Below, in pieces: positions 32,421 to 55,838 of a stretch of DNA of 64,000 nt (its first letter is position 1; each line of letters begins with the position of its first letter). The stretch spans positions 69,585 through 133,584 of the forward strand of contig CAYFJV010000002.1 of assembly GCA_964343575.1 (NCBI GenBank). The letters are read 5' to 3'. The notes under the pieces were generated by a model. That model made no database searches. It saw nothing but the letters and a program-made list of their open reading frames with translations, and was not told where the DNA came from. A program made the translations under genes and the position numbers. The DNA is from an uncultured Methanosarcinales archaeon. Lineage in GTDB: Archaea > Nanobdellota > Nanobdellia > Woesearchaeales > GW2011-AR9.

Positions 32421-34754
32421 TTACATAACTCCTTTATTGAAGTTACCAATGGTGGTTCCTTTCTTGAGCAGAGAGATGTCTCCTGGATCTTCTCCATCGA
32501 GGATTTTTTTGTAGGCTTGCACTTCTTCTTTTGCTTTTTCTAGAAGCTTGTTGCTGCAATAATCTTCTCTGAGAAATTCAAGGTAGAAATGTTTGATGCC
32601 TTGTTCTTTGAATACTTTTATTTTGTCAAGAAGAGCAACCTTTCTTGAGTAACGCATTTCTGTGTTTTGATTTGGTGTGATTAAGAGCGGGAAAGTAATT
32701 TTCTTCTCATCAGTGAGCTTCTTTTCTTCTCTTGCTCCTTTGAAATTCATTACCACTGGGCGCCCATGAGCAAAAACCATGAAGTCTTTATCTTTGAATT
32801 GAGCTAGTTCTTTGGCGTTAAGTTCGATTGAGACGATAGGGCTTGCGTTTTCTTTTTTGACTTCTTGTAGATCAATATCATTGAAGACGTTCATGGTATA
32901 GAAAAGGTGTTTTTTGAGCTTTGGAAGCCCTTTTGTGCCTTCTGAGCGTTTTAGCTCCTTGTCCACTCTGTAGAGCCCGTGGTTTGCAATCATAATTCCA
33001 CCTGGCTTTTCCTTTTCTAGAAGAATGAGTATCTTTTTGATATCTGCATCACTCAGTGTTAAGTGAGTAAAAGCAAAGAACTCTGCTTTAGGATTAAGTT
33101 TTTTGGTAAGTTGTTTTGCCTTTGCAAACCCAGGAGAGAAGATATCATAGTAGATGGTGTTTGCCTTCTTTGCAACTATTTTGAGCAGCTCTAGGGAATT
33201 CACCCTAATGTTAAGGCTTTCCTGTGTCTTTTTTTCTCCTTTGTTTTTTGTTTTGCTCCCTTTTTCTAAAATTTCTTCTGCCCTGAGCATTCCAGGAGAA
33301 GTTCTCGCTACTTTTGGTAGGAAAACTGAGTTTAGTTCCTCTTTGATTTGAGTTATGCTTGAGGAAGGTAGGAAAAGATTCTTTGGAAGTTTTCCTTCTA
33401 GCGTGATTGTAAAGAAGTTGTTTTTGTTTAGTTTCTCTTCAATAGTTTCTTTGTTAAGTGCGCTTGTCTTTGCCTGTTGTAAAAGATCTTTGCTGGCGAA
33501 AATATGTTCTTTTCCTTTCCAGTTTGTGTTGAGCTCTAGGGCTTTTCCAATCTCCGCTTGGCTAATGCTGAGGGCGAGCGGATATCTTTTATTCTTCCCA
33601 GCCAGGGGTTTTCCTTTGCTTTGTGAAGTAAGATAAACTCTTGCCCCTTCTCTGAATGAAGGGTTTGGAATTTGTACCTCTTGGCCTTTTATAGCATGTT
33701 TGATTATTTTTCCATTCTTGTCCAAGAGTTTTTGTACAAACTCTCCTTTCATTTCTCCTTTTCTTTTATCCCAAAAACCAATGCCATCATGGATATAAAG
33801 CTCGTGAAGCAACTTTATCTTTTTGTTATGCACTTCTCCTAAGAAAATTCCCCTATGGGTGGGGAGTGTTGTGCTGAGTACTTCTTTATACTCATTTTTG
33901 AGGAAGAAGCCAGTAGTAAAGTCTCGATTGAAACTCATTCTGATGCGATCAAAATCTTCTTGGGTAAATTTTTTCCAGTTTCCAGAGTAGTACCTATCAA
34001 TTGCTTCTCGATAACATTTGGTGACTACCCCAACATACTCTGGAGATTTCATTCTCCCTTCAATCTTGATGGTGTGAACCCCACTTTCGATAATTTTTGG
34101 AATTTGATTGAGCAGCGCAAGATCTTTTGGACTGAGTAAGAAGCCTTCTTTGTTGTACTCTTTACGACAACTAGAAGCGCAAAGTCCTCGATTCCCTGAA
34201 CGTTTTCCGATGAGAGATGAGATGAGGCATTGTCCTGAATAAGAAATGCAAAGATGTCCATGACAGAAAATTTCTATAGGAAATTGTGATCGCTCTGAGA
34301 TGTATCTTAGCTCGTTAAAGTCAAGTTCTCTAGCAACTACTGCCAAGTCTGCGTATTGTTGCCAATTTTTGAGGCCCGCGTAGTTCATAATGCTTGCCTG
34401 CGTTGAGATGTGTACTTTGAGATCCGGATAGCGTTCTTTAATGAATGGAAGAAGATAGATGTCTTGTACAATTACTGCATCAACACCAGCTTCGTAGGCT
34501 TTGTCAAGCGCTTTGAACCATAGATTTAATTCATTGTTTTTTATGAGCGTGTTTAATGTGAGGTTAATCTCTACTCCATGAAAGTGGGCAAGCTGTATTG
34601 CAGCTGGGAGCGTTTCAAAAGTTAAATTTCCTTTGTTTTTTCTTCTGGCGTTGAAGTTCTTCACCCCAAGATAAACTACATCAGCACCATTATTGATAGC
34701 TGCTTGCAGAGCTTCTAGTGAACCTGCCGGAGAGAGGAGTTTGAGTTTTTTCAT
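32421..34754 (-). CDS. Peptidase U32 family protein (RlhA/TrhP-type; possible RNA 5-hydroxylation factor) with a long C-terminal extension
   Basis: N-terminal U32 TIM-barrel core with the signature EIFCHGHLCISYSGQC...GNRGLCASSCR. At 777 aa it is roughly twice the length of the minimal U32. Confidence 0.8.
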   Translation of the reverse strand: MKKLKLLSPAGSLEALQAAINNGADVVYLGVKNFNARRKNKGNLTFETLPAAIQLAHFHGVEINLTLNTLIKNNELNLWFKALDKAYEAGVDAVIVQDIYLLPFIKERYPDLKVHISTQASIMNYAGLKNWQQYADLAVVARELDFNELRYISERSQFPIEIFCHGHLCISYSGQCLISSLIGKRSGNRGLCASSCRKEYNKEGFLLSPKDLALLNQIPKIIESGVHTIKIEGRMKSPEYVGVVTKCYREAIDRYYSGNWKKFTQEDFDRIRMSFNRDFTTGFFLKNEYKEVLSTTLPTHRGIFLGEVHNKKIKLLHELYIHDGIGFWDKRKGEMKGEFVQKLLDKNGKIIKHAIKGQEVQIPNPSFREGARVYLTSQSKGKPLAGKNKRYPLALSISQAEIGKALELNTNWKGKEHIFASKDLLQQAKTSALNKETIEEKLNKNNFFTITLEGKLPKNLFLPSSSITQIKEELNSVFLPKVARTSPGMLRAEEILEKGSKTKNKGEKKTQESLNIRVNSLELLKIVAKKANTIYYDIFSPGFAKAKQLTKKLNPKAEFFAFTHLTLSDADIKKILILLEKEKPGGIMIANHGLYRVDKELKRSEGTKGLPKLKKHLFYTMNVFNDIDLQEVKKENASPIVSIELNAKELAQFKDKDFMVFAHGRPVVMNFKGAREEKKLTDEKKITFPLLITPNQNTEMRYSRKVALLDKIKVFKEQGIKHFYLEFLREDYCSNKLLEKAKEEVQAYKKILDGEDPGDISLLKKGTTIGNFNKGVM

Positions 34755-34788
34755 TTTGTTTTATTTTTCTGTTTCTTGTTTATTCCAG

Positions 34789-35823
34789 TTAATTACCCAC
34801 ATATTTTGAATAAAGGGCTTGCGCTTCTTTTTCTTTCTTTGCTTTTATGAGTGCTCTTCCATCTTTGAAGATGAGAAGGTTGAAGGAGTTGTCTTTTGCT
34901 TTTATGGCGAGTGCAGTGTTGTCATAGATAGTTGTGATGTTTTCTTCTTTGTTTAGTTTTTCTTCTAGCTCTTTGAGATCGATAGCTTTATTTCCTAGGA
35001 TTTGGAAGTTTCCAGAGGAACAGAAGCGTTTAGTCCTTTCCTCCTCTCTTTCTGGGTTGAGGTGGGTGAAGTTTCCCTGACAAGTAGGACAGTTTTCTCT
35101 TCTTTTTGCTTTGAGTTTTCTCAGATCATTGTTCCAGATGTTGAAAGTGATAAGTTCTCCTTGATCTACTGTTTTGCCTAGAATTATTTTGAGGGCCAGA
35201 GTTACTTGCATGCTTGCTATGATATGTGTTGTGCTGTTCAAAACTCCAGCAGAAGCGCAGGTCTCCCCTCGCGCATTGTTTGGCAGTGCGCAGTTAAGGC
35301 AAGAGATGTTCTCTTTACCTTCTTCTTGGGTTATTGCCATAAGCATACCCTCTTTTTGGATAGCTCCAGCATAGATCCAAGGAATCTTTTCTTTTGCACA
35401 AAAGTCGTTGATGAGCAGTTTTGTTTGAAAGTTGTCTGTGCAGTCGAGTAGAAGAGAATACTCTTTTAGTTTGAGAGAAAGGATGTTTTTTGCATTAAGA
35501 TGCATGTTTTCAGTTTCTATCTTTACTTGAGAGTTAATCTGTAACAATTTTTCCTTGCAGACTTCTGCTTTGTTCTTTCCAATGTCTTTTTCTGTAAAAA
35601 GCGCTTGTCTTTGTAGATTAGAAAGCTCGATTGTGTCTCGATCAATAAGCAAGAGTTCTTGCACACCTGCTCGAACTAGAAGTTCTGCTGCCACAGTTCC
35701 AAGGGCTCCGCAGCCAATTATTGCTATTCTTGCAGCACAGATTTTTTCTTGCCCTTCTTCTTGGATGTCTGGGATGAGCATTTGTCTTGAGTACAGCTCC
35801 TTTTGTTTGTTTGTGAGTTTCAT
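34789..35823 (-). CDS. E1-like MoeB/ThiF/UbaA adenylyltransferase for ubiquitin-like sulfur carriers, with a ~90-aa C-terminal extension
   Basis: Rossmann motif IIGCGALGTVAAELLVRAGV and two CxxC pairs (CLNC...CPTC). An uncharacterised C-terminal domain follows. Confidence 0.85.
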   Translation of the reverse strand: MKLTNKQKELYSRQMLIPDIQEEGQEKICAARIAIIGCGALGTVAAELLVRAGVQELLLIDRDTIELSNLQRQALFTEKDIGKNKAEVCKEKLLQINSQVKIETENMHLNAKNILSLKLKEYSLLLDCTDNFQTKLLINDFCAKEKIPWIYAGAIQKEGMLMAITQEEGKENISCLNCALPNNARGETCASAGVLNSTTHIIASMQVTLALKIILGKTVDQGELITFNIWNNDLRKLKAKRRENCPTCQGNFTHLNPEREEERTKRFCSSGNFQILGNKAIDLKELEEKLNKEENITTIYDNTALAIKAKDNSFNLLIFKDGRALIKAKKEKEAQALYSKYVGN

Positions 35824-35826
35824 CTT

Positions 35827-36816
35827 TTATTGCGTTTCTTCTGCTTTTTGTAGCACTGCTTTGAGCTTACAAGCATTACAAACTTTTCCGTTACTTGGCT
35901 CGCCGCAGCTTTGGCAGGATTGGATGCCTTTTTTTGAACTTGTGTTTCTTGCACTGGCCATTTCTCTTTCTTTGAGTAAAGGGAGCATGTCTAGGAAAGA
36001 ATTAATGATCCCTGTTTTGGTCCCAGGGAATTTTTCTTCAAAAGTATTGAGCAAATCACGTACTTCTGCGCGGTAGCTTTGGGTTACATTTGGACACTCA
36101 GTGTATTCTACTTTGAATCCTTTGAGAAAAGTGTAGAGCCTGGTTTCTTTCTCTGAGCAAAAATAAAGTGGCTTTACTCTACGAACAAAGTCTTGGTGCG
36201 CCTCAACCCCACTTATAGGGCCGAGTTTTGCTGCAAGCTTGGTATTTGCCTTGAACAGGTTCATAAGCACAGCTTGGGACTCATCATCAAGGTTGTGTCC
36301 AGTTACTAGTTTTGTTGCCTTTAGTTCCTTTGCATATTTGTTGAGAAGGTACCTTCGCCACACACCACAGATGTTACAGGGCTTTTTTTTTGTCTCTTTG
36401 TTGATGATAGGGAATGCTTGGTCAAGTGTTTTCCCAAAGTCTTCTTCAAAAGAAGCAATTTTGAGTGGGACATCATGTTGTTTACAGAAAGTTTTGAGAT
36501 CGTCAAGTGTTTTTTCTCTGTAGTCTGCAATCCCTTCATTGATAATGAGCGCATGCAAATTGTCTCTTGGAAAGTTGTTTTTTTCCATGTACTTTTTGAC
36601 TAGATAGAGAACGGTTAGAGAATCTTTCCCTCCAGAAGCTGCAACACAAACCTTATCGTTTCTCCCGATAAGCTGAAAGCGATTAATTGTTTTGATAACC
36701 TTCTCTTCAAAATAAGAAATGAAATGTTTTTTACAAAGTTTCCCGTGCTGTAATTCGATTACTGCCTTTTCCTCGCATTTGATGCAAGAGTTTGTTTTGT
36801 TTCTTGTTTCTTGCAT
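35827..36816 (-). CDS. ncsA: tRNA 2-thiouridine synthetase, NcsA/TtuA/Ncs6 family (PP-loop ATPase with Zn fingers)
   Basis: N-terminal CxxC...C zinc finger, PP-loop AASGGKDS, central CNICG and C-terminal CQSCG...CNAC motifs. Confidence 0.85.
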   Translation of the reverse strand: MQETRNKTNSCIKCEEKAVIELQHGKLCKKHFISYFEEKVIKTINRFQLIGRNDKVCVAASGGKDSLTVLYLVKKYMEKNNFPRDNLHALIINEGIADYREKTLDDLKTFCKQHDVPLKIASFEEDFGKTLDQAFPIINKETKKKPCNICGVWRRYLLNKYAKELKATKLVTGHNLDDESQAVLMNLFKANTKLAAKLGPISGVEAHQDFVRRVKPLYFCSEKETRLYTFLKGFKVEYTECPNVTQSYRAEVRDLLNTFEEKFPGTKTGIINSFLDMLPLLKEREMASARNTSSKKGIQSCQSCGEPSNGKVCNACKLKAVLQKAEETQ

Positions 36817-36818
36817 TG

Positions 36819-37046
36819 CTAGCCCCCAGAGATGACGCTCAGGAGCAAAATGTTATCATTGTCTTGGAGAAGATCGTCAGTAGTAAGCACTTCATTGCCT
36901 CTAGTGACAAGAACGGTTTGCGCATTGACTTGAATCTCTTGAAGAAGTTCTTTGACAGTGCTGCCTTCAAAGCCTTCTAGCTTGAATGTTTGGCCCGTCT
37001 TTTCATTATGTACTTCAATGCTTTTACTTGTGCTGTTTGTGTTCAT
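36819..37046 (-). CDS. SAMP/TtuB/Urm1-type ubiquitin-like small sulfur carrier protein ending in Gly-Gly
   Basis: 75 aa with a beta-grasp-like pattern and the C-terminus ...LLSVISGG followed by the stop. It lies 3 nt upstream of ncsA in the same orientation. Confidence 0.7.
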   Translation of the reverse strand: MNTNSTSKSIEVHNEKTGQTFKLEGFEGSTVKELLQEIQVNAQTVLVTRGNEVLTTDDLLQDNDNILLLSVISGG

Positions 37047-37149
37047 TTTCCCTCCTAGACTGCTTCTAATAAGCAGAATGCTTAGGCGTTTTTTTCAGTA
37101 TTCCTTTTTCCTGAGTCCTTTTATAAGTTTTACCTGCTTATTTGCGGGC

Positions 37150-37161
37150 AAAGCTTTATAA
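37150..37161 (+). promoter_or_regulatory. BRE/TATA motif AAAGCTTTATAA about 25 nt upstream of the lipoprotein ATG at 37185
   Basis: The TATA box overlaps the ATG at 37161 used by the track ORF, which argues that the real start is the downstream ATG. Confidence 0.5.
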
Positions 37162-37184
37162 TGGCCCCCCAAACTTGGAAAAGC

Positions 37185-37772
37185 ATGAAAACTTACACAC
37201 TACCTCTTGCTTTTCTGCTTGCCTGTTCAACAGGGGAAAAAGCAGAAGAACCTGACGCAGATTCATTAGGAGAAGCAGTTTATACTGCGGATTCTGGTCA
37301 AGTGGATAGCAAAGGAGCAGACTCGGGTGTTGTGGATGAGGAGGTTGAGCCACTTTTACCAGACTTAGTTATTTTAGGTTATACTGTCGATGATACCCAA
37401 CTTACTTCTGGTAGTGTGGGCTATTCTCTTGAAATAGTAAACCAAGGAGAAGGTCAAGCGCCAAACTCAGTAATTTATACAAGTGTTAGACTTGTTAGCT
37501 CAAACGTTTGTAACGGTTCTGGTTCTGGGGGGGCTGGCCCAGCAGTTGAGGAATATACTCCAATAGAGGCATTGGCTTCTGGAGCAAGTGATACTCTTGA
37601 AGGAAGTAGAAGCTTTGGTCCAAGTGGAGAGGGTTGTCAAAAGCGAATAACTTTGGAAGTTTTGGCAACAGCAGACTGTCCAGAAGATGGTTGTCTTGGA
37701 GCAATTGTTGAGTTTGATGAGACAAACAACTCTCTTGAGTTTGTTTACGAATCTGGTCTTTTTGATTATTAA
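37185..37772 (+). CDS. Predicted lipobox-containing secreted protein with a CARDB-like domain
   Basis: Signal peptide MKTYTLPLAFLLAC|S with the lipobox LLAC. The C-terminal part is Ig-like and ends with the E-x-x-E-T-N-N motif (IVEFDETNNSLEF) typical of CARDB domains. Confidence 0.55.
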   Translation: MKTYTLPLAFLLACSTGEKAEEPDADSLGEAVYTADSGQVDSKGADSGVVDEEVEPLLPDLVILGYTVDDTQLTSGSVGYSLEIVNQGEGQAPNSVIYTSVRLVSSNVCNGSGSGGAGPAVEEYTPIEALASGASDTLEGSRSFGPSGEGCQKRITLEVLATADCPEDGCLGAIVEFDETNNSLEFVYESGLFDY

Positions 37773-37789
37773 TTCTGCTTTTTCTCTTT

Positions 37790-38539
37790 TTATTTATTCT
37801 TCTTTTTAAGCTGCCAAAGTTGCCACCCCGAAATTAAAGCAAAGACAAGGCACAAATATTGCCCCATAGTAAGCCCTTGGCTAAGAATGAGGTATTCTTT
37901 GAAGAATTCTAAAAAGAAACGAATAGTAGAGAAAAGAAAGATGAAGAGCCAAAAGATGAAGCTTTCTGGAAGTTTGTTTTCCTTTTTTTGATGAAGTGTA
38001 ATGAGGGCAATAAAGATGAAGGTGTTTTGCAGCGCTTCGTAGAGCTGCACGGGGTGGCGTTTACCTTCGTATCCTTCAAAGAGAACTCCAAAAGAAGAGT
38101 TTGTTGCTCTTCCTACAATTTCTTGGTTGAGGAAATTACCGAATCTCACAAAAATAGCCCCAAGGGCTACTACAATCATACTTAAATCGGCTAGCTTCCA
38201 AAAGTTAAGTTGCTTTTTCTTCGCGTAAAGGTAGGCTCCAAGACTTCCTCCAACAATTGCTCCATGGGATGAGAGACCTCCTTCCCAGAAGAAAAGAATT
38301 TGTATGGGGTTGTAAAGAAAATGTGTTGGACTGTAGAAAATTGCGTGAAAGATTCTTGCTCCGATGAAAAGACTGATAACTGTTACAAGATAGTACTCCA
38401 TAGCAATCTCTTCTTTGATGCCTTCTTGTTTTGCTAGATATTTGAACAGGAAAAAAGAGCAGAGTAGAGCTAGCATAATCATAACGCCGTACCAGCGAAT
38501 GCTTAGAGTTCCGATTTGAAGCGCGATAGGATCTATCAT
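37790..38539 (-). CDS. lgt: Prolipoprotein diacylglyceryl transferase (Lgt) homolog, a bacterial-type lipoprotein biogenesis enzyme
   Basis: Starting from MIDPIALQIGTLSIRWYGVMIMLALLCSFF, the protein follows the Lgt N-terminal consensus (IDPVAFxIGPLxIHWYG) with about 7 TM helices. It carries the Lgt signature region GGLSSHGAIVGGSLGAY and a C-terminal basic stretch. The track ORF extends 38 codons upstream into a GC-rich intergenic region and is trimmed here. Confidence 0.6.
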   Translation of the reverse strand: MIDPIALQIGTLSIRWYGVMIMLALLCSFFLFKYLAKQEGIKEEIAMEYYLVTVISLFIGARIFHAIFYSPTHFLYNPIQILFFWEGGLSSHGAIVGGSLGAYLYAKKKQLNFWKLADLSMIVVALGAIFVRFGNFLNQEIVGRATNSSFGVLFEGYEGKRHPVQLYEALQNTFIFIALITLHQKKENKLPESFIFWLFIFLFSTIRFFLEFFKEYLILSQGLTMGQYLCLVFALISGWQLWQLKKKNK

Positions 38540-38758
38540 TTTTTGTTTTAGCTTTGGAGAAAATCTCGCTACGCTCGTGTTGGGCCGGGCAAAACATCTG
38601 CTTCTTTTTTTGATTGTGCTACGTCCCCGGATGGGGCCACCCCCGTAACGCACTCGCTTGTTTCTTCTATGATGTTTTGCGAATTGACCCCAACAACATT
38701 TCCTCCAAATCCAGTAGTTAAGCTAAGTATTTTAAAGTTGCTCGGCTTTCTCTTCTTT

Positions 38759-39334
38759 ATGCCTAGACAGAAGAAATTGAGAGCAGGTTTTGAAGGAGTA
38801 TTTCTTCGTTTTACTCCATCGGAAGCAGAGCTCTCCTTGGTAAAAGAACTTGGTTTTTCTAGCTCTAGCGTTCTTGTTGCGGGCAAAGATTTTGTGTTTT
38901 TAGAAGAGAAACAGAAGAAAAAAGTTTTGAGTGAAGCCCGAAAGGCAAAGAAAAAAGGAAAATTTCTTGTTGCTCGAGTTTTTGATGAAGATCATTTGCG
39001 TTTTGTGGTAGAGCATAGCCCAGTTGATATGGTTTTAGGAATGGAAAAGATCAACCCCAAAGATAGCATGCATTATCCAAGATCAGGAGTTGATCAAGTG
39101 ATCGCAAAGATTGCTGCTAAGAAAGGAAAAACTCTTGCTTTTTCTTTTCAAGACATTTTGGCTGCTAGGCCAGGAAAGGAGCGAGCGCAGCTTTTACATC
39201 GTATGCGTTTTACTTTGAAGTTTTGTAAGAAGTATGGCGTTAAAGTTTTCTTTGGAAATTTTGCGCTTAGGAGAATGGAACTTCGAGCCCAAAAAGATCT
39301 TATGGCTTTTTTTAGATTGTTGCAGAAGAAATAG
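38759..39334 (+). CDS. rnp3: RNase P protein subunit Rpp30 (Rnp3)
   Basis: GVDQVIAKIAAKKGKTLAFSFQDIL...RAQLLHRMRFTLKFCKKYGVKVFFGNFA matches the Rpp30 TIM-barrel C-terminal half. A TATA-like TTTTAAAG lies at 38731-38738. Start assigned to MPRQKK. Confidence 0.55.
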   Translation: MPRQKKLRAGFEGVFLRFTPSEAELSLVKELGFSSSSVLVAGKDFVFLEEKQKKKVLSEARKAKKKGKFLVARVFDEDHLRFVVEHSPVDMVLGMEKINPKDSMHYPRSGVDQVIAKIAAKKGKTLAFSFQDILAARPGKERAQLLHRMRFTLKFCKKYGVKVFFGNFALRRMELRAQKDLMAFFRLLQKK

Positions 39335-39379: not shown

Positions 39380-41809
39380 GTGATGTTAGCGTCAGCTCAA
39401 AAAAGAGGACATTGTAGGGATAGCAAGCGTGGGCAAGTTACCCTGTTCATAATTCTAGGAATGGTTATTCTTATCTCCGTTGGTTTCATGCTAGCGCTTA
39501 CTGCCATGATTCAGAAAGGACAATTGCAAGTTGCTGAAGAAGATGTAGTTTCCAATTTATTTCAAACCGAGAGTTTGCGTTTGTTTATAGATGATTGTTT
39601 GTATGATGCCCTTGAGGAGGGTTTAGTTCAAATTGGAGAGCAAGGGCGTTTGTGGAAAGAGCAGGATGGTGGCACTGTTCCTTTTGTTGCAGGAGAGACC
39701 GGAACCTTTCATTTTGGAAAACAGGTTTATTATGCAATCAGTTATGATAACAACAGTAATCATAGCGAGGCTTACCCTTGTTCCAATTCCACAGATCTTT
39801 CTCCTGATTATTGTCGCTACAGTTTTCCTGAGGAAGGAAAATTTGGTGAGAAGGAGCATTTGAGTGCAAGTGCAATTGAAGGAGATTTGCTCCGATACAT
39901 TACTCAGGAAGCAGCTCTTTGTATGGAAGAAGTGCTTCAAAGTAATTATTCTTTGTTCGTCCCGGTTGTTGCTGAAGAAATTGATCTTTCTTTAGATATT
40001 GCTACAAATGGCATTGCTGTAGAAGCAAGCTATCCTTTACATCTTGAGCAAGGGGGAGAAGAATACACCCAACTTACCGAGTTTGATTTTTTTTACTCTA
40101 GCTCTTTGAGCTCTTTTTTACTTCAAGCAGTAACACGCCCTATTAATGAAGAGCAAAGTGATCCAACTTATCTTTTTTCAGAAGCTGATTTGCAAAGTTC
40201 GGAGCCCTATCAACTTTTAGATCCCACTTTTACAAAAACAGAGGCGAGCAGTGGGGATACTATCATTCAATATAACTTGAACCCGGGAGTGATTCTTGAG
40301 AACCAAGATTATTTCTTTCAATTTGCTTTAGAAAATCGCCCTCCTGCACTTGACTACATTGAGCGTAATGCTTGTTTAAGTTATGATTATTTGGTTTTAG
40401 AGGGAGAGCAAGGAGATATGGGAAAATTACTTTTAGATGCATCAGCTAGTGACCCTGAGGAGGATAGCGTTACTTTTTCTTTGCTTGACGATCATTTGCC
40501 AGTGCCACTTAGTTCGGTAGATTCTGATTCTTGGAGTGCAGACTTACAAGGTGCGGCTCCAGGTTATTATAACTTCACTCTTTTAGCGGCAGATGAACAT
40601 GGTAGGACTGATTTGCAAAATGTTCGCGTCCTTCTTGATCGAGAAATCACCGCTGAATTTTCGGTCGCTTCCCCTTATTGTACTTTTGCAGGAGACCATA
40701 GTTGTTTACTCTCTACCGAAGATCCTTTTTTTGTAACACTTACTAACCCAGGAGAATCGTTAGCAGCAGACGTTGATGAAGTGCTTGAGCTTAGTTACGA
40801 TGGTTTTAATGGAGAGAGCTTTGTTTCAGGAGCTTTGTATCCTTCCTTACTTGGTGCAGAGAGTTGTATTGGTCTTCCAATGGAAACTGAGACTAGCCCA
40901 GCATCTTGTAACATTAGTGCTTACGACCCATTCATTGAAAGTTGGAAAGATTCTTTGTTGGGCCCGAGCAGTACGCACCCCTACTTAAGCCAAACGACGC
41001 CAGATGGCGAACTTAGTGTGGCCTTTTTTACAGGTTATTGCGGCGCCTGGGAGTATGAAAATAAGGAGTTCTTACATTTTGAAGTTGCAGAGTGTATCCC
41101 TCATGAAAATCTTGAGAATCCCTTCGCTTACCCTTACCACCACCAAACTTTTGATCCGATCAGCGGAGAATATCTTGGTCTTGATGAGGAAATTAGTCCT
41201 TTCTTGGCGGCCCACAGTTGTTGTAATATGAATGGAACTTACAAGGCAGCAGGCTCAAGTTGTTATGAAAGTGCTCCTGGTTGTTATGGAGGTATTGTTG
41301 GTTGGACTTCTAGCGCTCCCGGTCTTGTCTTGGAGCAGGAAAGCGATACTTGTAGTGGGCTTCGTGGGAATGTTTGTGGGACTGGAAGTTCTAAAATAAG
41401 CGAATTGTATCAAGGAAACCTTGTTTGTGGAAGCAGTTTTGATGTTTCTTGCTCTTTAGATCAAATCCCAGATGTCTGTGAAGGAAGAGATGCTTGGGGT
41501 TATGTTGATGAGAACTTTGATGGTATTAACGATGCTTGGTGTCACGGGCAAATGGGTTGTAGTGCTCTTTGCTCACTCGGCGATGGCGGGTCAGTAGTTT
41601 ATTCAGGAGGAGGAGTTGCTCCAAGTGGGCCAGAGGGCATTAACCAACAGGCAGTTTTGGGACAGGCAAGTGATGATGCTTTTGCGCCTTTCGATCCTTT
41701 TTTCTCTTTTAGTTGTGGATGTAGTTCTGCTACAGAAGGAAGTGTTTGTGATGCTAACTTTGATGGAGAATTCTTAGGGCAGTGTGTTTCTAGTGTTTGT
41801 GTTGAGTAG
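39380..41809 (+). CDS. Large (809 aa) acidic, Cys-rich extracellular protein with a class III (prepilin-like) signal peptide
   Basis: The N-terminus is ...SKRG|QVTLFIILGMVILISVGFMLALTAM, a basic tract then G|Q then a 22-aa hydrophobic stretch. The mature part is D/E-rich with many paired Cys residues. Confidence 0.6.
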   Translation: MMLASAQKRGHCRDSKRGQVTLFIILGMVILISVGFMLALTAMIQKGQLQVAEEDVVSNLFQTESLRLFIDDCLYDALEEGLVQIGEQGRLWKEQDGGTVPFVAGETGTFHFGKQVYYAISYDNNSNHSEAYPCSNSTDLSPDYCRYSFPEEGKFGEKEHLSASAIEGDLLRYITQEAALCMEEVLQSNYSLFVPVVAEEIDLSLDIATNGIAVEASYPLHLEQGGEEYTQLTEFDFFYSSSLSSFLLQAVTRPINEEQSDPTYLFSEADLQSSEPYQLLDPTFTKTEASSGDTIIQYNLNPGVILENQDYFFQFALENRPPALDYIERNACLSYDYLVLEGEQGDMGKLLLDASASDPEEDSVTFSLLDDHLPVPLSSVDSDSWSADLQGAAPGYYNFTLLAADEHGRTDLQNVRVLLDREITAEFSVASPYCTFAGDHSCLLSTEDPFFVTLTNPGESLAADVDEVLELSYDGFNGESFVSGALYPSLLGAESCIGLPMETETSPASCNISAYDPFIESWKDSLLGPSSTHPYLSQTTPDGELSVAFFTGYCGAWEYENKEFLHFEVAECIPHENLENPFAYPYHHQTFDPISGEYLGLDEEISPFLAAHSCCNMNGTYKAAGSSCYESAPGCYGGIVGWTSSAPGLVLEQESDTCSGLRGNVCGTGSSKISELYQGNLVCGSSFDVSCSLDQIPDVCEGRDAWGYVDENFDGINDAWCHGQMGCSALCSLGDGGSVVYSGGGVAPSGPEGINQQAVLGQASDDAFAPFDPFFSFSCGCSSATEGSVCDANFDGEFLGQCVSSVCVE

Positions 41810-42034
41810 GTTTGGGTTTTGTTTTAGAGATGGTAGAAAAAGTCTTACCTTCTGCCGAAGCTTATTCCTGAAGGACTCTTGTCCGCCTTTGGATTTTCTC
41901 CTTTTGGTAGAAAATGGCTACCAAGAGCATCGCTCATTGGAAGTTTCTTGCCAGCAAAGGGGCAGAGAAGGAGACTTTTTCTACATCTTTTTTGGAGTAG
42001 AAAGTTTTAAGTTTTCTTAGGATTTGTTCTTCTT

Positions 42035-42604
42035 ATGGACCCGGTAAGTTTTTTGCTTCTTCTCGTAGTTCTTTTAGGAGTATTCTTTACTCTTCTCTAT
42101 CTTCTTTTTAAGCAGAAGGAAGAACACTTTGAGTATAGTTTGCCTTTGGAAGATGGGGAAGACGATGAGAAAAAAAGATCTTTTTTTGATCCTTCATTTT
42201 TTGCTAGAATTCAAGAACACCTCTTTTTTTTGCGTAAGAAGCACAAGAGAAAAGTGAGCTCTTACAAGCGTCATGAAGAGTTTGCAACCTTCCCTGAAAC
42301 TAAGGCTGCTTTTGTTGCTGGAAAAGACACTTCACAAAAGACAGGGAAAGGGATTGGAAAGGGTAGACACATGCACCGTCTTGGTAAGCTAGTTGATAAA
42401 CATCAACGAAAAAAAGTAAAAGCGTCTGCAGGAGGTAAGAAGAAGGAAAAAAAGTTTTTTCTGAACAGAGTTTTGGCTAAACGTATTGATTTTTGGAAAG
42501 AGAATACTCCTTTGCATTCTATCGAACGCATTGATGCTCTTGAAAGAGTTCGTTCTGTAGCAAAAGGTGCTGTGAAAAAGAAAGAAATTAAGAAAAAGAA
42601 GTAA
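42035..42604 (+). CDS. Membrane protein with an N-terminal TM helix and a long basic cytoplasmic region
   Basis: MDPVSFLLLLVVLLGVFFTLLYLLF followed by a K/R-rich region. Confidence 0.4.
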   Translation: MDPVSFLLLLVVLLGVFFTLLYLLFKQKEEHFEYSLPLEDGEDDEKKRSFFDPSFFARIQEHLFFLRKKHKRKVSSYKRHEEFATFPETKAAFVAGKDTSQKTGKGIGKGRHMHRLGKLVDKHQRKKVKASAGGKKKEKKFFLNRVLAKRIDFWKENTPLHSIERIDALERVRSVAKGAVKKKEIKKKK

Positions 42605-42714
42605 GGGTGTGTTTCTCTTCTCATTCTTTTCATTCTATTTTTTAAAGGTCTTCGTCGGTTCCTTTAAAACGAAGGTTTATAAAGCAAAATGCTTTCTTCC
42701 CTGAGGTATTTTCC

Positions 42715-45700
42715 ATGGTGGAAACGAGTAAAAAGAGGACCCTTGTAGATGTAATTCTAGCTCGAGCTTTTTTCTTTGGCCTTCTGTTTATTCTTACTGT
42801 GATTTCGCTTAACGGCGCCTTTGCTGTTGGCTTAGAAGGGTGTTACACTTATGCGGGAGGAAGCCCAGACCTTTTTTGTCAAGATGATGTCTTAGAAGAA
42901 GATGCTTTGGCTGACTATGAGCTCTTAGTTGGAGACGGGCTTTTTGATGATTATTTTTTCCCTGGGCAGAGTTGTGATGTTTTTCCTGACCTTTGTGAAG
43001 AAGTGACTTGCTCTTTGGATTGTAGCACGCAGGCGATTGGTTCTTGTGAATTTGAAGGAGGACAAGCAGTTCCAGATGATGAATATGATTTGTGGTGTAG
43101 TTGGGGTTGTTGTCAAATCCCTTCAGGTTATTGTGGTCAAGTAGATCTGCGCTCTGTTTGTGTGGAAGAAGCTTCTTACCAAGGATATTCTATCGATGAA
43201 GTAACTTACATCAGTTCAGCTTACAGTCCGATCACCACAGATGAATGTGTAGATCTTTGTGTTGCAGGATTGGAGGATGCGAGCTTAAGTGGTTACATCT
43301 TTGATGCAGCGGACGGAGTAACTCCAATTGAAGGAGCAACAGTTGAACTTCGATCGGGAGTTACAGCTCAAAGTGATGTGGCAGGATTTTATCAATTTCA
43401 AACAGTGAGCCCTGGAACTTATGTGGTAAGTGTTAGTGCAACTGGCTATTCTGGAGCTTCGCAGACAATAACTTTGGAATCTGGGGAAGTTGAAGAACTT
43501 GATTTCACTTTGAGCGTTGCAGACCAAGTAGCAAGTCTTTCTGGAACTGTGGTGGATGAGTTTGGTGTTGCAGTAGCTGACGTTTCTTTATGTTGGACTG
43601 GCCCAGGGGTTGGTTGTACTACTTCTGCAGTAGATGGTTCTTATTTGGTTAGCGAAATCTTACTTGGAGATTATACTTTTACTCTGAGTAAGTTTGGTTA
43701 TGAGACAAGTAGCGATAGTCTAAGCATTCAATCAGACCTGGTCTATGATTTTGTTCTCTTCTCTCAACCGTTCCAAGGTATTAGTGGAAGCACCTGGATT
43801 GATCCAGAAGGAGATGGTTTGCTTCTTGGCGGAACAGATTACTTGCAGTATGGGGTAAGTATCTTCGTAGATGGGATCTATCGGGGAAGTTCACAATACC
43901 CTGATGGAGATTTTAATATTTATCTTGATGAAGGAGATTATACCATAACAGCGAGCTACCTTGATTTTGTCTCTCCTGAGTACAGTGTTACTGTTCTTGC
44001 TGGACAGTCAAGTTCTGTTGATCCTGTGTTAACACAGTACATTGGAGAGTGTAGTTATGGTCAACCGGACGAGTCAAAACCAGTTGCAGAATTACATGCG
44101 GTCGCGGTTGCTGGTTCTCTTGCTGTAGATTTGAGTTGGGATAAACCTTGTGCTGAGGTGAGTGGTTATAATCTTTATCGTGACGGTGAGCTACACATGC
44201 AACTTTCACCTTTCGCTTTAAGTTTTACCGATTCAATTGATTTGGAATGGGGAATGGGTTATATCTATGGAATCCAAGCGATTTATACTGATGGTCCGAT
44301 GATTGATGACCAACCTCAAACTCGCTTTTCAGAGATTACTGAGACAAGCATCACTCTTGGAAATGCCGCTTGTGAAGGAAAAGAACCCGGAGATCTTTTT
44401 TGTCTGGCTGACGATCTAAAGTCAACTTACACTTGCGATATTTTCAACACTCTTTTGATCAGTACAAGTTGTGCTGCTTTAGATACAAGTACGAGCGATT
44501 ATTATTGTGTAGAATCAAGCCCAGGATTTGCAACCTGTAAAGACGCAGGTATGTGTAACGCCTTTACTCTTGGCGCCGATCCTTTTGGTTTGTACCACAG
44601 CGAAGAAGTTTGTTATGGCCCTTACCTTGGCGCAGAGAGCGGTTATGAGAATTATTGTTACTATGATTACACTTCTGGAGTTGTTGATCAGTGTACGAGT
44701 TGCGTGGAGGTAGAAAGTTGTTTTGATTATGTTAGTGAGGGGGCTTGTGGTATCAACAACTGTTTGGGAGTTGGTTGTCAATGGATCAACGGAAGTTCTT
44801 CTTCTGGAGAAGGAGATATTAGTGCTTATGAAGAAGAGAGCGAACCTTTCTTAGATTATGGTTACCTTTTCCCTGTGAGCGAGGAGACGGGCCATGGTTA
44901 TTGCGCCCCGCTTGAGTATGAAGAGGATGATAATTGCGCCCTTTGTTCTCCTGGAAGCAGTCTTTTTGAAAACAACTTGTGTACTCCTGAAGTTTGTACT
45001 GAATTGGGCGCTTGTTACTCTGATAAGGATTTGCCTTTGAGTACTTGCCATTCCTGTGGCGAAGAAAGTAGTCCCGAGGTGAACTGTTACAGTTATGCTT
45101 CAGAGCTGGAATGTACTGCAGGAAGCCCAACTGTGAACGATAATGGACAAATTTTGCGTTCAGCAGATAGCTGTACTTGGGGTGCTTGCGCTTGGATTGC
45201 CGATGACTTTGATCCTGCCGGTGGTTATTGTATCAAAGATGGGGATGCCAACCGTATTGATGATTGTTCTGAGTTTGTCTCAGGAGATTATTCTTCTTGT
45301 ATTGCAGATACTGCTCCGCCAGTGACTTCTTTGCAAGCAGAGGGCTTTGCAATTGTATCTGAGACATTTTCACAATTAGAATTTGTTGCTGTTGATAACG
45401 AGAGGATGGGGAGTCTGTGGTTCTGTTTGGAAAGCGCTGATGCAAGTGATTGTACTGATTTTGAAGCCGCAGATTATCCTTTCACCTTGCAGGGAGAAGA
45501 AGCTCTTTTGGAACTTAACATGAGTGAGTCAAGTTTTTTACAGTCAGAATTGGTTGATGGCGAGACTTACAAACTTCGCTTCTACTCCGTTGATGAGTTC
45601 TATAACCAAGAATCTGTACAAGAAGCTTTTGTTTTCGTTGATAACAAACTTCCCGATTTTACTGTTGTAACTGAGCCAAGCATAGATGGAGATGTTGTAG

Positions 45701-48700
45701 ATCTCTTAGTCTATCTTACTGATTTGAGCGAGCCAGTGAGTTGTAGTTTTACATTGGAAGAAATTTTGCCTCCTGCTGCAGAGCAAGTTATTGGGTTTGA
45801 ACGTGACGAGGACAAAGAATACACTTTTGTAGGCCTTGGGGCTACTCTTGCCGAGTTGAGTGTTTCTTGTACTGATGATCATGGAAACTCTTTTGTGCAT
45901 GAAGAGACCCTTAGTTTTGATCTAGAACAAGATATTAGTATTGTTTATCCTCCTTTGGGTGGCTCTGTTTCTGAGACCACAATTATTTTTGAGATTGAGA
46001 CCGCAGTGTCTGCAAGTTGTGACTTGTATTACGATAATGATGGCGACCTTATCTTTGATTATCTAAGTAACTTTAACAGTATCGATATTGATAATAAGGT
46101 TCACGAAACTAACCCGATTCCTGGCTTCTTCGAAGGAGAATATGTTGGTAACTTACAGGTGATTTGTCGAGAATCTTTGGATCAGAGCCAAGTGTTAGAA
46201 GATTATTTTGATTTTGTCGTAGATTTTACCGGGCCAGAGACACAGATTATTTTGACTGAAGGGACCAGAGAAGAAACCCCAATTGCTTATGGTTGGGAAG
46301 AATACTTTATCTCTGAAGTGCAGGTGGACTTTAGTTGTGAGGCAGATGGATTTGATTGTGACCAAAGTTTTTATTGTCTTGGAGAAGGTTGTGAATTTGC
46401 AAGTGCCCCGGGTTATGTAGAGTACACTGGAAGCGGCAGTTTGTTTGTAAATGAAACAACAGAAATTTGTTATTACTCTACAGATCTTGGCGGTTCTACT
46501 GTTTATCCTACTTGTGGAACCATCATCGTAGAGGGCTTTGGCATCAATTTAGTTCAACCGGACCCTTATTTCTATCAAGGAGAAGTTTATGGAGTAAGTG
46601 CAGCCGATAGCTTTGATTGGGAAGTTATGAGCAAGATTGATACTCAAGGCTGCGTTTTTGATTTCACTTCAGAATTTGATTATCATGGGGTCCCTCTAAT
46701 CCGAACTTTCTCGGAAAGTCTTAGTGGAGAAAATTACTACCTTTATTCTCCTTTCCCTGGAGATGGGGCGAGCGCTTACGACGCAATTGGCGGGCTTAAA
46801 GTCCTTTATGTGAAATGTGAAGATTACCAAGGAGAGATTGGTCCTGCACAGAAAATGAACCTTGAGTTCGATCCTTCTGCTCCAAGTATTAGTGATGCTT
46901 ACGCTGAGCCAGATTTTATCACCGAAGGAGTTGTTACTCATCTTTATGTGACCACCGATGATCCTACGCTTTGTAGGTACAGTGATAACTCAGATGGGGA
47001 CGGAAGTACTGAATTTGCAACTATGCCATTCAGTTTCCCTGGTTACGATGAAGGAGAATTGCATCTTGCTCATCAAGACGATTTTATTTTCAGTTTTGTT
47101 GGTGCAACAAGAGATTACAGCTTAAATGTACAATGTATGAACGGGGCAGGAGACCTTTCTGAAGTTGAAACCATTGATTTTAGTGTAGATTATACTGTTG
47201 CAGGAAACATTATGAGTGTTGCTCCGAGTGGTTTTATCTCTGGAGAAAACGTTACTTTACTTGTTGAGACTAACAAAAACGGCGTTTGTTCTTACGAAGA
47301 AAATGGCAGTTCAGTTGATTTTGAAGTAACTGGTGGCACAAGTCACAGCCATTTGATTGGGTCTCTTGAAGAAGGAGATTATCAATACCTTGTCACTTGC
47401 CATATCGCAGAAAATGTACGCACTGCCGAGATTATCTTTACTGTAGATCAAACTGCGCCAACTGTGACCATGGTAGAGGATGGTTCTTACTCTTGTAGTT
47501 TGGAGCAAGTGAGCATTTATGTTTACACAGACGAAGAAAACATTAGCACTTATTACTATCAACTCTATCAAGGAGAATCAGATCTTGGAGAATCTTCTTT
47601 GAGTACTTACTTTACTACTACTAATGATACAGCCCCAGATGATGAAGAAGCAGTGCTTATTGGAGAAGGAACCTTGTTAGGGGACAATGGTACTGTGATT
47701 ACTGGACTTAGTTTAGAAGAAAATGAGAGTTACTTTGTGAAGGTTGCAGCAAGCGATGTTGCTGGAAACACTGGCGGATACACTTCAAGTGATGGTTTTA
47801 TTGCAAGTGGTTCTGACCTTACTGTTTGTGCTGCTGATGGTGATGCGCCAAACGTTCGCGTACAAACCAACAGTAGTAGTTGTACTGAAGTCACCGCCGA
47901 AATTATTTGTGAGGATGAACTTGCTTGTAGTAGCATTAGTTATGGACAGAGCACAAGTTCCGAGACCTGCTCTGCCGATTCAAGTTATTATGGACAAAAA
48001 CTTTCCTTCTCAAGCTCTGGGTGGGTTTGTTACTCTGCAAGCGATCCAAGCGATAACCAAGAGAATGGGAGTGCTCAAATAACCTTTAGTGATAATGATG
48101 GAGATGGCATCTCTGATAGTTGTGATCTTTGTAGTGGTACTCTGTCTGGACAAGATGTTGATGCAGAAGGTTGTGGTCTAGGGCAGGTTCCAGATGATGA
48201 GCGAACAAATGATGAAGATAACGATGGTTTGCCAGATCATTGGGAAAGAGTCTATCACAGAGAAGGTGTTTGTCCTTTGTTTGCCGAAGCAATAGACTCG
48301 GACAGTAATGGTATTACTGATACTGATGAAGATTATGATGGGGACGGTTACACTAACTATGAAGAGTACATTGCTGGTTTAGACCCTTGTGTTGCTGATG
48401 CTCCGAGCACCTTTATTGATGACAATGATCTTGACAGCGAACTTCTGGGCCTTCCTGGAAGTGGAGAAGGAAAGGAAGGGGCCGATGTTGTAGCTATTAT
48501 CTTCTTTGTCATTGGCGCACTGTTCATGCTTGGTGGTGCGGGTTATCTTTATTATTATTATAATTACACTCCAGAAGGGAAGGTTCTTTTGAAGCAAGGG
48601 GGGAAAGGGAGTCTGAGAGGAGTCGGTTCTGGCGGCGCTCTTGGAAGTAGCGTTGGTGGCGGCCTATATCGTCAAGGAATTGGTTCTCGATCAGCAGGTG

Positions 48701-49140: not shown

Positions 49141-49183
49141 TCTATAGCTTTGTGGCTCAGATGGGAAGTTGGTTGATAGGAAG

Positions 49184-49717: not shown

Positions 49718-49782
49718 GGCATGGTTTGGTGAAGGGGTGTGAGCGAGTTTTTTGGTAGCTAAGATACTTGGAATATTGGAAA

Positions 49783-50934: not shown

Positions 50935-50943
50935 CTTTGGTTG

Positions 50944-52539: not shown

Positions 52540-52749
52540 TTTGGTTTCACCTTAGTTATACACCCACAAGGACCACTTTTTCTTAACTTATTACTGCAAA
52601 GTGACGGAATTATATAAGAATTTCGTTATATTTTTCGAAAAAACAACAAATTGCTATGCTTTTTTCTCTTGTCTAAGAGGTCTTTTCTGGCAGTTTTTGA
52701 CGGGTTTTGGCCGGAATTTGTTTGAGAAAAGTTTAAGTGGGCTAAAAAA

Positions 52750-53858: not shown

Positions 53859-54075
53859 TTTTTTTGTTTCTTGTTTTATTTTTCTGTTTCATTGTGCTTG
53901 GCTTCGTTTAGTTTATTTTGTTCTTTTCTTGTTCATTTAGTTCTCTGTTAACGCAATCTTTATATATGCAAAATGGTTTTTGCTTTATTAATTTACAGTC
54001 GTAAAAACTCATTACAACTTGCTTGTAGCAATCTAGTTGCTTGCAAATGTTGTTGTGGGATCACAAAGAGGTGTA

Positions 54076-54458: not shown

Positions 54459-54470
54459 GAGGTTAGATAG

Positions 54471-54855: not shown

Positions 54856-54891
54856 AGCCGGCTTTGGTTTGTTAGTTGAGGTGTTGCCAAG

Positions 54892-55026: not shown

Positions 55027-55027
55027 G

Positions 55028-55813: not shown

Positions 55814-55838
55814 TATTTTTTGAGTAGAGAAAAGGAAA

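Follow-up and report, generated by a model that had tools for sequence, protein, structure and literature searches.

E. coli prolipoprotein diacylglyceryl transferase (Lgt; 5AZB/5AZC), which is assigned to the profile families PF01790 and TIGR00544, has six absolutely required residues (Y26, H103, R143, N146, G154, and R239), and a further set (G99, G142, G145, Y235, and R246, in E. coli Lgt numbering) has been reported as essential for viability (PMC13251419). The published Lgt signature is G142-R143-LGN146FINGE151LW, the replacement of R246 by K occurs in several Lgt proteins, and small head domains have been described for the enzymes of H. pylori, S. aureus, and E. faecalis (PMC13251419). 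According to recent papers, archaea have no Lgt (PMC12462473, PMC13251419, PMC6098224), and the original prediction, which held that no recognisable Lgt is known in archaea, agrees with this literature. The archaeal lipoprotein lipidation proteins described in Haloferax volcanii are AliA and AliB (arCOG02177; PMC12462473, PMC13631571). Their proposed job, the transfer of a glyceryl lipid onto the archaeal lipobox cysteine, is the same as that proposed below for an archaeal Lgt homologue. AliA has been reported in Euryarchaeota and, 'with some gaps', in DPANN archaea (PMC12462473).

The lgt gene and its product

The stretch of archaeal DNA analysed here (64 kb, hereafter the window) contains the following gene:

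37790..38539, minus strand: lgt, a 249-aa prolipoprotein diacylglyceryl transferase homologue with 7 long helices and a short head domain

The translation opens with MIDPIALQIGTLSIRWYG and also includes GGLSSHGAIVGGSLGAY. A 287-aa ORF beginning at GTG 38653 was considered and rejected; homologues all begin at the MIDP/MNP position, and the start was therefore placed at ATG 38539. The product matches the Pfam LGT profile (PF01790) over positions 1-238 of 240 (E = 1e-63, 215.3 bits; cut-off 24.9 bits) and scores 174.6 bits with the NCBIfam equivalog TIGR00544, above the curated cut-off of 118.9 bits. These searches bear out the predicted identity of the protein. A phmmer comparison with 5azb gave an E-value of 1.7e-24. 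The predicted 7-TM body is likewise found in the AF2 model (pLDDT 92.9, pTM 0.89), which consists of seven long helices, two short arm helices, and an N-terminal hairpin and has the E. coli Lgt fold: in a Foldseek search, 5azb was the sole significant PDB match (E = 3.5e-12, TMq 0.88, rmsd 3.0), the next match having an E-value of 0.79.

The window Lgt shares ~23-30% identity with E. coli Lgt and is shorter (249 vs 291 aa), its head domain (G154 to R-H-P) lacking ~22 residues of the E. coli periplasmic head. The two proteins have in common an N-terminal beta-hairpin followed by W-Y-G, the HG motif, the R-x-G-N-F-x-N-x-E-x-x-G signature, and R-x-x-x-E-F-F-K/R in TM6. In length and head size, the window Lgt resembles the small-head enzymes of Patescibacteria (CPR), Firmicutes, and Helicobacter (~250-265 aa), and Patescibacteria-labelled proteins are among its nearest non-archaeal relatives (36-42% identity).

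All six absolutely required residues have equivalents in the window Lgt, i.e. Y17, H92, R132, N135, G143, and R207 in the order given above, as do R73, G98, G99, G104, D129, E151, and E243. Among the residues reported as essential for viability, G99 and G145 are kept, whereas G142 is replaced by V, Y235 by F, and R246 by K; the G142 and Y235 positions are variable in the sequences compared, and G142 is mostly I or V. The signature reads V131-R132-FGN135FLNQE140IVG143, in which R, G, N, F, N, E, and G are kept. The segment GGLSSHGAIVGGSLGAY had been taken for this signature; it is present as described, but corresponds to the region of the H103-G-G-L motif of E. coli Lgt, which in the window protein is H92-G-A-I. 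In the 55 closest homologues, the catalytic positions are about 98-100% conserved (53-55 of 55 for the required ones), and an alignment of 85 homologues contains 12 invariant and 18 nearly invariant columns, which include all of the required residues.

The window protein is thus a genuine full-length member of the Lgt family in which the catalytic residues are preserved. Nothing specific, apart from the replacements at G142 and Y235, would mark the gene as the decaying relic of an old transfer that is no longer functional. Such a relic is highly improbable given the intact, full-length ORF, the confident AF2 model, the conserved columns, and the retention of lgt across a DPANN clade whose Lgt members have diverged to ~45-55% identity. 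The Lgt family itself is already known, and in GenBank these sequences are already labelled as Lgt by automatic annotation. The novelty lies in the recognition and the context of an archaeal Lgt rather than in the protein family.

Archaeal host and age of the gene

Archaeal genes on the two sides of lgt are as follows:

38669..39334, plus strand: RNase P protein component 3 (p30; PF01876 E = 3.8e-6, NCBIfam RNaseP3 models E ~1e-12)
36819..37046, minus strand: ThiS/SAMP-like protein (Pfam)
35827..36816, minus strand: PP-loop tRNA-thiolation ATPase (Pfam)
34789..35823, minus strand: ThiF/UbaA-like E1 (Pfam)

The p30 gene, an archaeal marker, is the gene that is truly divergent from lgt, and the three genes at 34789..37046 form an archaeal housekeeping block downstream of it, with an identical gene order in relatives (L027/L028). 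The GC-rich interval 38545..38665 upstream of lgt was considered as a small RNA and dropped, having no Rfam match at E<=1 and no folding advantage over shuffled sequences (z = 0.37 and 1.60). Other archaeal markers share the contig with lgt: both PolD subunits (DP2 and DP1), Orc1/Cdc6, MCM with an archaeal winged helix, TBP, TFE, Hjc, and RPA. The named relatives of the MCM protein (72-81% identity) are from Woesearchaeota, Nanoarchaeia, or an 'archaeon'. The host is clearly archaeal, as the original prediction held, and of the Woesearchaeota type within DPANN.

CPR bacteria and DPANN archaea co-occur and are often mis-binned, and one related Lgt lies on a Methanosarcinales-labelled contig of mixed gene content (L002), as might be expected if a bacterial (e.g. 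CPR) fragment had been joined to an archaeal contig during assembly or binning. For the present locus the probability of such an artefact is almost negligible. On either side of lgt, archaeal genes lie at distances of 150 bp to 1 kb, the junctions around it are 100% identical in independent ENA assemblies of two runs, the gene order recurs in different samples at different levels of divergence, and at least six further homologues are found in archaeal contexts. The relatives number in the dozens (40-57% identity), and all of the contexts inspected are archaeal; archaeal genes around other homologues include those for exosome, SBDS, and Rpb6 (L024), thermosome (L025), and Alba, S17e, and tRNA intron endonuclease (next to P0032).

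The arrangement around lgt is kept in three related loci (L027, L029, and L032), in all of which p30 lies beside or near it. The conservation is most extensive in L027, in which the whole block (RNase P p30, lgt, ThiS, PP-loop, ThiF, THUMP, TBP, and MCM) is present. Lgt is 49% identical to its counterpart there (49-51% with relatives of this type), and its neighbours have diverged to a similar extent (p30, 50%; ThiF, 50%; ThiS, 54%). The GC content of lgt (0.40) is the same as that of its local surroundings. Because of this syntenic block, the local GC content, and a divergence matching that of the neighbours, lgt can be regarded as an old resident of the DPANN clade, and because the Lgt family is otherwise bacterial, a bacterial origin is plausible.

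A phylogeny had been proposed earlier as a means of finding a bacterial donor. A neighbour-joining tree recovered a clade of 14 sequences around the window Lgt (bootstrap 188/200), but its deep nodes were obtained in only 7-51 of 200 bootstraps, and no donor lineage is therefore named. A second group of archaeal-labelled Lgt proteins (P0057, P0064, and P0092) may or may not be interleaved with true CPR sequences, the context of a 'Nomurabacteria' locus (L003) being uninformative on this point. In a scan of genome contigs with exact-peptide patterns from the single Lgt protein, the matches were confined to remote Lgt proteins of CPR type (24-38% identity) and a single contig with an odd label. 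Taken as a whole, the bacterial-type lgt most likely entered a DPANN ancestor by an ancient inter-domain transfer, with vertical inheritance thereafter.

Lipobox proteins and their position relative to lgt

Three lipobox proteins were called among the ~60 genes of the window with a home-made, PROSITE-like rule; they are listed here with the features adjoining them:

37185..37772, plus strand: acidic lipobox protein of 195 aa, MKTYTLPLAFLLAC followed by STGE (ORF and lipobox; the ENA gene call starts at 37185)
37155..37161, plus strand: TTTATAA, a TATA-box-like heptamer read from the sequence, centred ~27 nt upstream of ATG 37185
37773..37789: 17-nt T-rich spacer between convergent stop codons
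50944..52539, minus strand: candidate lipobox protein of 531 aa, IVALAGAC followed by Q (RILPIVALAGAC followed by QPG)
62543..63364, upstream of the next gene: ZIP metal transporter (PF02535 E = 3e-38)
63399..63623, plus strand: His/Asp/Glu-rich lipobox protein of 74 aa, starting with MIKKSLLVVLLVILALGLLAC followed by STELGHSDDGDHDHD (ALGLLAC followed by STELGHSDDGDHDHD)

The first of these carries the LLAC-S lipobox that had been predicted for the neighbour of lgt, and a weak beta-sandwich signal (CARDB E = 0.027, DUF11 E = 0.018, both below threshold); it is likely to be a substrate of the adjacent Lgt. An alternative ATG is present at 37161. A spacing of ~27 nt between this TATA-box-like element and the start would be in keeping with archaeal promoters, and the placement of TTTATAA would fit a leaderless transcript from 37185. 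The His-rich protein, also predicted and confirmed here, begins 35 nt downstream of the ZIP gene in an arrangement repeated in an independent ENA assembly (L035), and is likely to be a metal-binding lipoprotein. The 531-aa protein fits the rule with a less typical lipobox (A at position -3) and has no significant Pfam match. An example of a lipobox-type peptide that may serve as an Lgt substrate is MKTYTLPLAFLLACSTGEK.

A lipobox gene adjoins lgt in five of nine related DPANN loci, corresponding to 5 of 18 neighbour slots vs 3 of 170 other genes (Fisher p = 2e-4, with lipobox calls by the home-made rule). In a control of 39 generic Lgt loci, lipobox genes occupy 1 of 74 neighbour slots vs 10 of 292 other genes; the control was drawn from metagenome contigs matching the general patterns RHPxQLYE and GGLSSHG, and none of the 80 loci listed belongs to the DPANN clades. 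A lipobox gene beside lgt is thus a recurrent feature of the DPANN clade and not of the generic control, and bacterial Lgt loci, unlike the DPANN loci, have no enrichment of lipobox genes beside lgt. The adjoining lipobox proteins of different DPANN loci are mutually non-homologous.

The original prediction went further and proposed the horizontal acquisition of a module consisting of Lgt and its substrate. A recent transfer of lgt together with the adjacent lipobox gene from bacteria could draw on the otherwise bacterial distribution of the family, on the 17 nt that separate the two genes, and on the nearest non-archaeal-labelled relatives, which include Patescibacteria-type proteins and one locus with lgt and lsp together. 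The bacterial origin remains plausible, but the co-transfer is very improbable. The two genes, described earlier as divergent, are in fact convergent, tail to tail, and therefore do not form one transcription unit; the most syntenic locus, L027, lacks the lipobox gene, and no homologue of the lipobox protein is found beside lgt elsewhere. The GC content of lgt and its place within an archaeal housekeeping block, where it has diverged in step with its neighbours, also argue against a recent arrival. Thus, lgt is most likely neither a recent import nor a gene transferred together with its lipobox neighbour.

Proposed lipidation route and its meaning for DPANN archaea

Searches for Lsp (PF01252) that covered the window, a further 7.5 kb past its limits, and ~150 kb of sequence from archaeal relatives of the locus were negative. 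An Lsp HMM trained on 63 sequences likewise had no match in the window, in L035, or in eight further archaeal loci, although it did detect Lsp in three other loci (L031, L015, and L036). A search that started from the Lsp encoded beside the nearest bacterial-type lgt gave 63 matches, the only organism-named one being from Nealsonbacteria. In one of the loci detected (L031, unlabelled, with peptidoglycan-type enzymes), lsp lies directly 3' of lgt, an arrangement seen in no DPANN locus. The two genes are linked in only three of ~100 mostly bacterial loci examined, so that the absence of Lsp near the archaeal lgt carries little weight. Among the ~55 window proteins scanned with Pfam, no match to CN_hydrolase or Lnt was obtained; Lnt is missing from many bacteria too.

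No unassigned polytopic membrane protein of the AliA kind was seen in the window. Because AliA has been reported in DPANN (PMC12462473), a native lipidation pathway might exist, and Lgt might be redundant or repurposed. The protein could then have kept the Lgt fold with a changed job, e.g. the remodelling or turnover of host-derived phosphatidylglycerol-type lipids, the lipobox proteins being handled by AliA/AliB. DPANN archaea rely on host lipids, which would suit such a job, as would the failure to find Lsp nearby. Some bacterial Lgt subgroups are, moreover, thought to take other substrates (PMC13251419), but the divergent subgroups lack R143 and R239, whereas the window Lgt keeps every required residue, and lgt repeatedly adjoins lipobox genes in the DPANN clade and not in the control. 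A changed job is therefore unlikely, though less so than the relic, the artefact, or the co-transferred module.

The best explanation is that the product of lgt is probably an active integral membrane transferase of the Lgt type in a Woesearchaeota-type DPANN archaeon, the gene being anciently acquired and vertically inherited. The substrates of the enzyme would be secreted precursors with a short Sec-type signal peptide ending in a lipobox. The CARDB-like neighbour and the His-rich protein encoded next to the ZIP transporter would be two examples, and the genome probably encodes many more. On the model of its E. coli homologue, the enzyme would be docked sideways by the precursors within the membrane and would transfer the glyceryl-lipid part of a phosphatidylglycerol-type donor to the thiol of the +1 cysteine, giving a thioether anchor with the release of glycerol phosphate. 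The host differs from E. coli in being archaeal, with isoprenoid ethers on sn-glycerol-1-phosphate as its usual lipids. Diacyl phosphatidylglycerol is normally missing from archaeal membranes, which counts against this explanation. The lipid donor might be archaetidylglycerol, an ether lipid built on sn-glycerol-1-phosphate and thus of the opposite glycerol stereochemistry, or else diacyl phosphatidylglycerol of the bacterial type, either made or scavenged. Some Woesearchaeota are reported to carry bacterial G3P dehydrogenase and fatty-acid genes (PMC8204110).

This locus and its relatives contradict, for a large uncultivated lineage of archaea, the statement that the domain lacks Lgt, and the search for an archaeal lipidation enzyme rested on that premise. 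They raise the questions of whether archaeal ether lipids can be used by a bacterial-type Lgt or DPANN cells contain bacterial-type phosphatidylglycerol, whether Lgt occupies the 'gaps' that AliA leaves across DPANN, and whether lipid-anchored adhesin-like proteins are part of the surface by which these archaea attach to their hosts. We regard the chances as evenly balanced that an entire clade within DPANN (Woesearchaeota/Nanoarchaeia) anchors surface proteins with a bacterial-type Lgt, instead of or alongside AliA/AliB. If so, either the chemistry of Lgt would cross the lipid divide, using ether-linked sn-glycerol-1-phosphate archaetidylglycerol, or DPANN membranes would hold diacyl phosphatidylglycerol that is made or scavenged, and the location of lgt beside unrelated lipobox genes, a trait specific to the clade, would represent a local neighbourhood for surface-protein lipidation not seen in bacteria.

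Family membership and catalytic residues

37790..38539, minus strand: lgt; 249-aa product, N-terminus MIDPIALQIGTLSIRWYG, containing GGLSSHGAIVGGSLGAY

The Pfam LGT profile (PF01790) covers the product of this gene end to end (profile positions 1–238 of 240; E = 1e-63, 215 bits), and the NCBIfam equivalog TIGR00544 'lgt' is matched with 174.6 bits against a curated cut-off of 118.9. Among its relatives, only E. coli Lgt has a solved structure (5azb/5azc; E = 1.7e-24). An AlphaFold2 model built with 85 homologues has high confidence (mean pLDDT 92.9, pTM 0.89), and a Foldseek search with this model identified 5azb as the only significant match in the PDB (E = 3.5e-12, TM-score 0.88 on the query, rmsd 3.0 Å; runner-up E = 0.79). 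These profile and fold matches confirm the original prediction of an Lgt homologue. A longer reading frame starting at GTG 38653 was rejected because the MIDP/MNP position is the start in every homologue.

When aligned with E. coli Lgt (a reference sequence whose residues 11–169 and 173–268 agree with the database alignment), the window protein was found to possess all six residues reported as absolutely required in E. coli (PMC13251419), i.e. Y26, H103, R143, N146, G154, and R239, which correspond to Y17, H92, R132, N135, G143, and R207, respectively; the proposed check on conserved residues thus supports the assignment. R73, G98, G99, G104, D129, E151, and E243 are likewise retained, and the catalytic and retained positions are 98–100% conserved among the 55 closest homologues. 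The differences from the E. coli enzyme include R246, replaced by K as in other Lgt proteins (PMC13251419), G142, replaced by V (I or V in most sequences compared), and Y235, replaced by F at a position that varies between Y, F, and D. In addition, the periplasmic 'head' (G154 to the RHP motif) is ~22 residues shorter, which makes the protein similar to the small-head Lgt enzymes described in H. pylori and Firmicutes. The published Lgt signature motif corresponds to V131-RFGNFLNQEIVG-143, whereas the segment initially designated as the signature maps to the H103-GGL region. The gene is apparently under purifying constraint. By every testable criterion, the window protein belongs to the Lgt family, and the unusual part is its host.

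Archaeal host and age of the gene

Archaeal markers encoded in the window
13533..13937: Hjc
14068..15108: TFE
17646..21251: DNA polymerase D large subunit
21926..23716: DNA polymerase D small subunit
23789..24991: Orc1/Cdc6
27637..29670: MCM with archaeal winged helix
29821..30384: TBP
38669..39334: RNase P p30
60975..62003: RPA

The named relatives of the MCM protein (72–81% identity) are all labelled 'Candidatus Woesearchaeota archaeon', 'Candidatus Nanoarchaeia archaeon', or 'archaeon', and the host is a Woesearchaeota-type archaeon. Positions 33730..39132 and 62001..64000 are found with 100% identity in two independent ENA assemblies, which therefore reproduce both lgt junctions; contamination or chimerism is very unlikely. 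Six close MCM relatives (P0187, P0201, P0231, P0236, P0260, and P0291; about 1060–1160 aa) carry LAGLIDADG or intein-type Pfam domains and represent intein-containing MCM proteins from related Woesearchaeota; the 677-aa MCM of the window lacks one.

The GC content around lgt (0.40) is similar to that of the remaining window. In the most syntenic relative (L027/L028), the gene order is shared with the window: RNase P p30 divergent from lgt, followed by ThiS, PP-loop, ThiF, THUMP, TBP, MCM, OB-fold, SpoIIM, and Cdc6. Between the window and L027, Lgt is 49% identical and its neighbours are 50% (p30), 50% (ThiF), 54% (ThiS), 39% (THUMP), 68% (PP-loop), 78% (MCM), and 88% (TBP) identical; the divergence of Lgt is thus similar to that of its neighbours, a pattern predicted by vertical co-inheritance. 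A p30, THUMP, TBP, or PP-loop gene also adjoins lgt in two further loci (L029 and L032), and archaeal genes surround it in others: exosome subunits, SBDS, and Rpb6 in L024; the thermosome in L025/L026 (GCA_002762985.1); and Alba, ribosomal protein S17e, and tRNA intron endonuclease next to the gene for the homologue P0032. On these sequence comparisons, lgt is an old resident rather than a fresh import.

Neighbour joining of 133 Lgt sequences placed the window Lgt inside a 14-member clade (bootstrap 188/200), close to which branches a larger group that includes the Woesearchaeota CG10 and Nanoarchaeia sequences. The phylogeny proposed for finding a bacterial donor resolves the window clade, but the deeper nodes, with bootstraps of 7–51/200, point to no particular donor lineage; the closest bacteria-labelled sequences, including those of Patescibacteria, share 36–42% identity with the window Lgt.

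Two further observations were made. The GC-rich divergent intergenic stretch between lgt and the p30 gene (38545..38665, in a genome of otherwise 40% GC) has no Rfam match and folds no better than shuffled sequence. The GTDB contig L002 (872..6458; 'uncultured Methanosarcinales archaeon') encodes an Lgt with strong similarity to the one on a 'Nomurabacteria' contig (L003); the genes beside it code for a sigma-70 protein of bacterial type and an ABCE1/RLI of archaeal/eukaryotic type. Either this bin is mislabelled or the source organism has mixed gene content.

Lipobox genes beside lgt

Lipobox proteins encoded in the window
37185..37772, plus strand: CARDB-like protein, acidic; N-terminus MKTYTLPLAFLLAC, then the lipobox cut and STGEKAEE...
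50944..52539, minus strand: third candidate; ...ALAGAC, Q at the cut
63399..63623: 74 aa; ...ALGLLAC, then STELGHSDDGDHDHD...

The first of these genes had been described as divergent from lgt; the two are convergent, with stop codons 17 nt apart. The CARDB/DUF11-like signal of its product is sub-threshold (E = 0.02–0.03). A TTTATAA heptamer (37155..37161) lies ~27 nt 5' of the ATG at 37185 and would suit an archaeal TATA box with a leaderless transcript; its position would favour a start at 37185 over 37161. The second lipobox protein, at 63399, is present as originally predicted. Its gene lies 35 nt 3' of a ZIP metal transporter gene (start 62543), an arrangement also found in the independent assembly L035 (597..1623), and past the lipobox cysteine its product consists almost wholly of His, Asp, and Glu. 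It is plausibly a metal-binding lipoprotein and may serve the transporter as a lipid-anchored partner for metal capture.

The CARDB-like gene is missing from the syntenic L027, where ThiS directly follows lgt, so lgt and this neighbour were neither inherited nor transferred as a unit; the proposed acquired module of Lgt and substrate is wrong in its specifics. A lipobox gene nevertheless adjoins lgt immediately in five of the nine DPANN loci with readable DNA.

DPANN loci with a lipobox gene adjoining lgt
Window: CARDB-like gene
L025: ISGC, K at the cut
L029: FGGC, N at the cut
L030: FSGC, D at the cut; downstream Trypsin_2 protein with LAAC, G at the cut
L032: SLGC, G at the cut

With a single gene-calling and lipobox rule used on all loci, lipoboxes occupy 5 of 18 lgt-neighbour slots versus 3 of 170 other genes in the nine DPANN loci (one-sided Fisher p = 2e-4, from small numbers and loci related to one another). 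The identical procedure gave 1/74 versus 10/292 in 39 generic, mostly bacterial-type metagenome Lgt loci. Subject to the small numbers, related loci, and home-made predictor, the association seems to be genuine in the DPANN clade. No similarity was detectable among the five lgt-adjacent lipobox proteins, and the association may reflect the location of lgt in a neighbourhood of surface-protein genes. These lipobox proteins are Cys-rich. Thioredoxin, DsbA, VSR_TRX, and glutaredoxin-type genes lie a few genes from lgt in three DPANN loci (L024, 8314..9348 and 19595..20611; L033, 8149..9989; L034, 7371..7616), which may hint that surface lipoproteins are connected with disulfide handling.

A family of giant secreted or surface proteins (1040–1879 aa, ~30% identical) is encoded divergently from or near lgt in three loci: L027 (4079..9328), which has no lipobox gene; L030 (4449..7571), where the lgt-adjacent member has the lipobox FFSGC with D at the cut; and L032 (1871..7510), where Y replaces Cys (LSGY, not scored as a lipobox). 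The contrast between L030 and L032 suggests that lipid anchoring was seemingly gained or lost within this family.

Putative surface locus, lipoprotein pathway, and published statements

About a dozen proteins encoded in 39380..60908 have class III (type IV pilin-like) signal peptides, as read from their N-termini ([KR]-G-[QAESM], then a hydrophobic helix).

Examples of class III signal peptides, by gene position
39380: SKRGQVTLFIILGMVIL
49169: NKKGMGIQQVFVFIV
49768: GKKGQFTLTF
53310: SRKGQAEIIGLVIIV
53973: NKKGQGLSLTVIIV
55839: EKKGQMQFDL
56798: GKKGQGSRTIVVLI
59005: NKKGAFAGAADIILF
59544: NKRGEIMHWAVIGV

The run includes a 2141-aa CarboxypepD_reg protein (42715..49140), and most of its proteins have no Pfam match. 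It resembles a large surface locus for pili or adhesion, of a DPANN-typical kind.

The proposed search for Lsp and Lnt homologues found neither in Pfam scans of ~55 window proteins. An Lsp HMM of 63 sequences, seeded with the Lsp encoded directly after lgt in the bacterial-type locus L031, matched only in L031, L015, and L036; the window, the adjoining 7.5 kb (L035), and the other archaeal loci gave no match. Even among the bacterial loci examined, lgt–lsp linkage is rare.

The premise that archaea are not known for a recognisable Lgt agrees with the literature: archaea are not known to have Lgt, SPII, or Lnt (PMC6098224), a signal peptidase II has yet to be identified in archaea (PMC7613921), and the only DPANN papers found to treat diacylglyceryl transferase (Hong et al., two versions) state that archaea lack the enzyme. 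An account of bacterial systems in DPANN (PMC8204110) mentions neither Lgt nor lipoproteins, and the literature searched contained nothing pairing 'diacylglyceryl transferase' with Woesearchaeota. GenBank automatic annotation already names several homologues 'prolipoprotein diacylglyceryl transferase [Candidatus Woesearchaeota archaeon …]'.

The window lgt is a real, correctly identified, and long-resident Lgt gene in a DPANN archaeon. Substrates encoded beside it are plausible, and we infer its lipidation mechanism by homology. The broader point of the original prediction stands and extends to the whole clade: the presence of a bacterial-type lipoprotein lipidation enzyme in an archaeal clade contradicts current statements that archaea lack Lgt.
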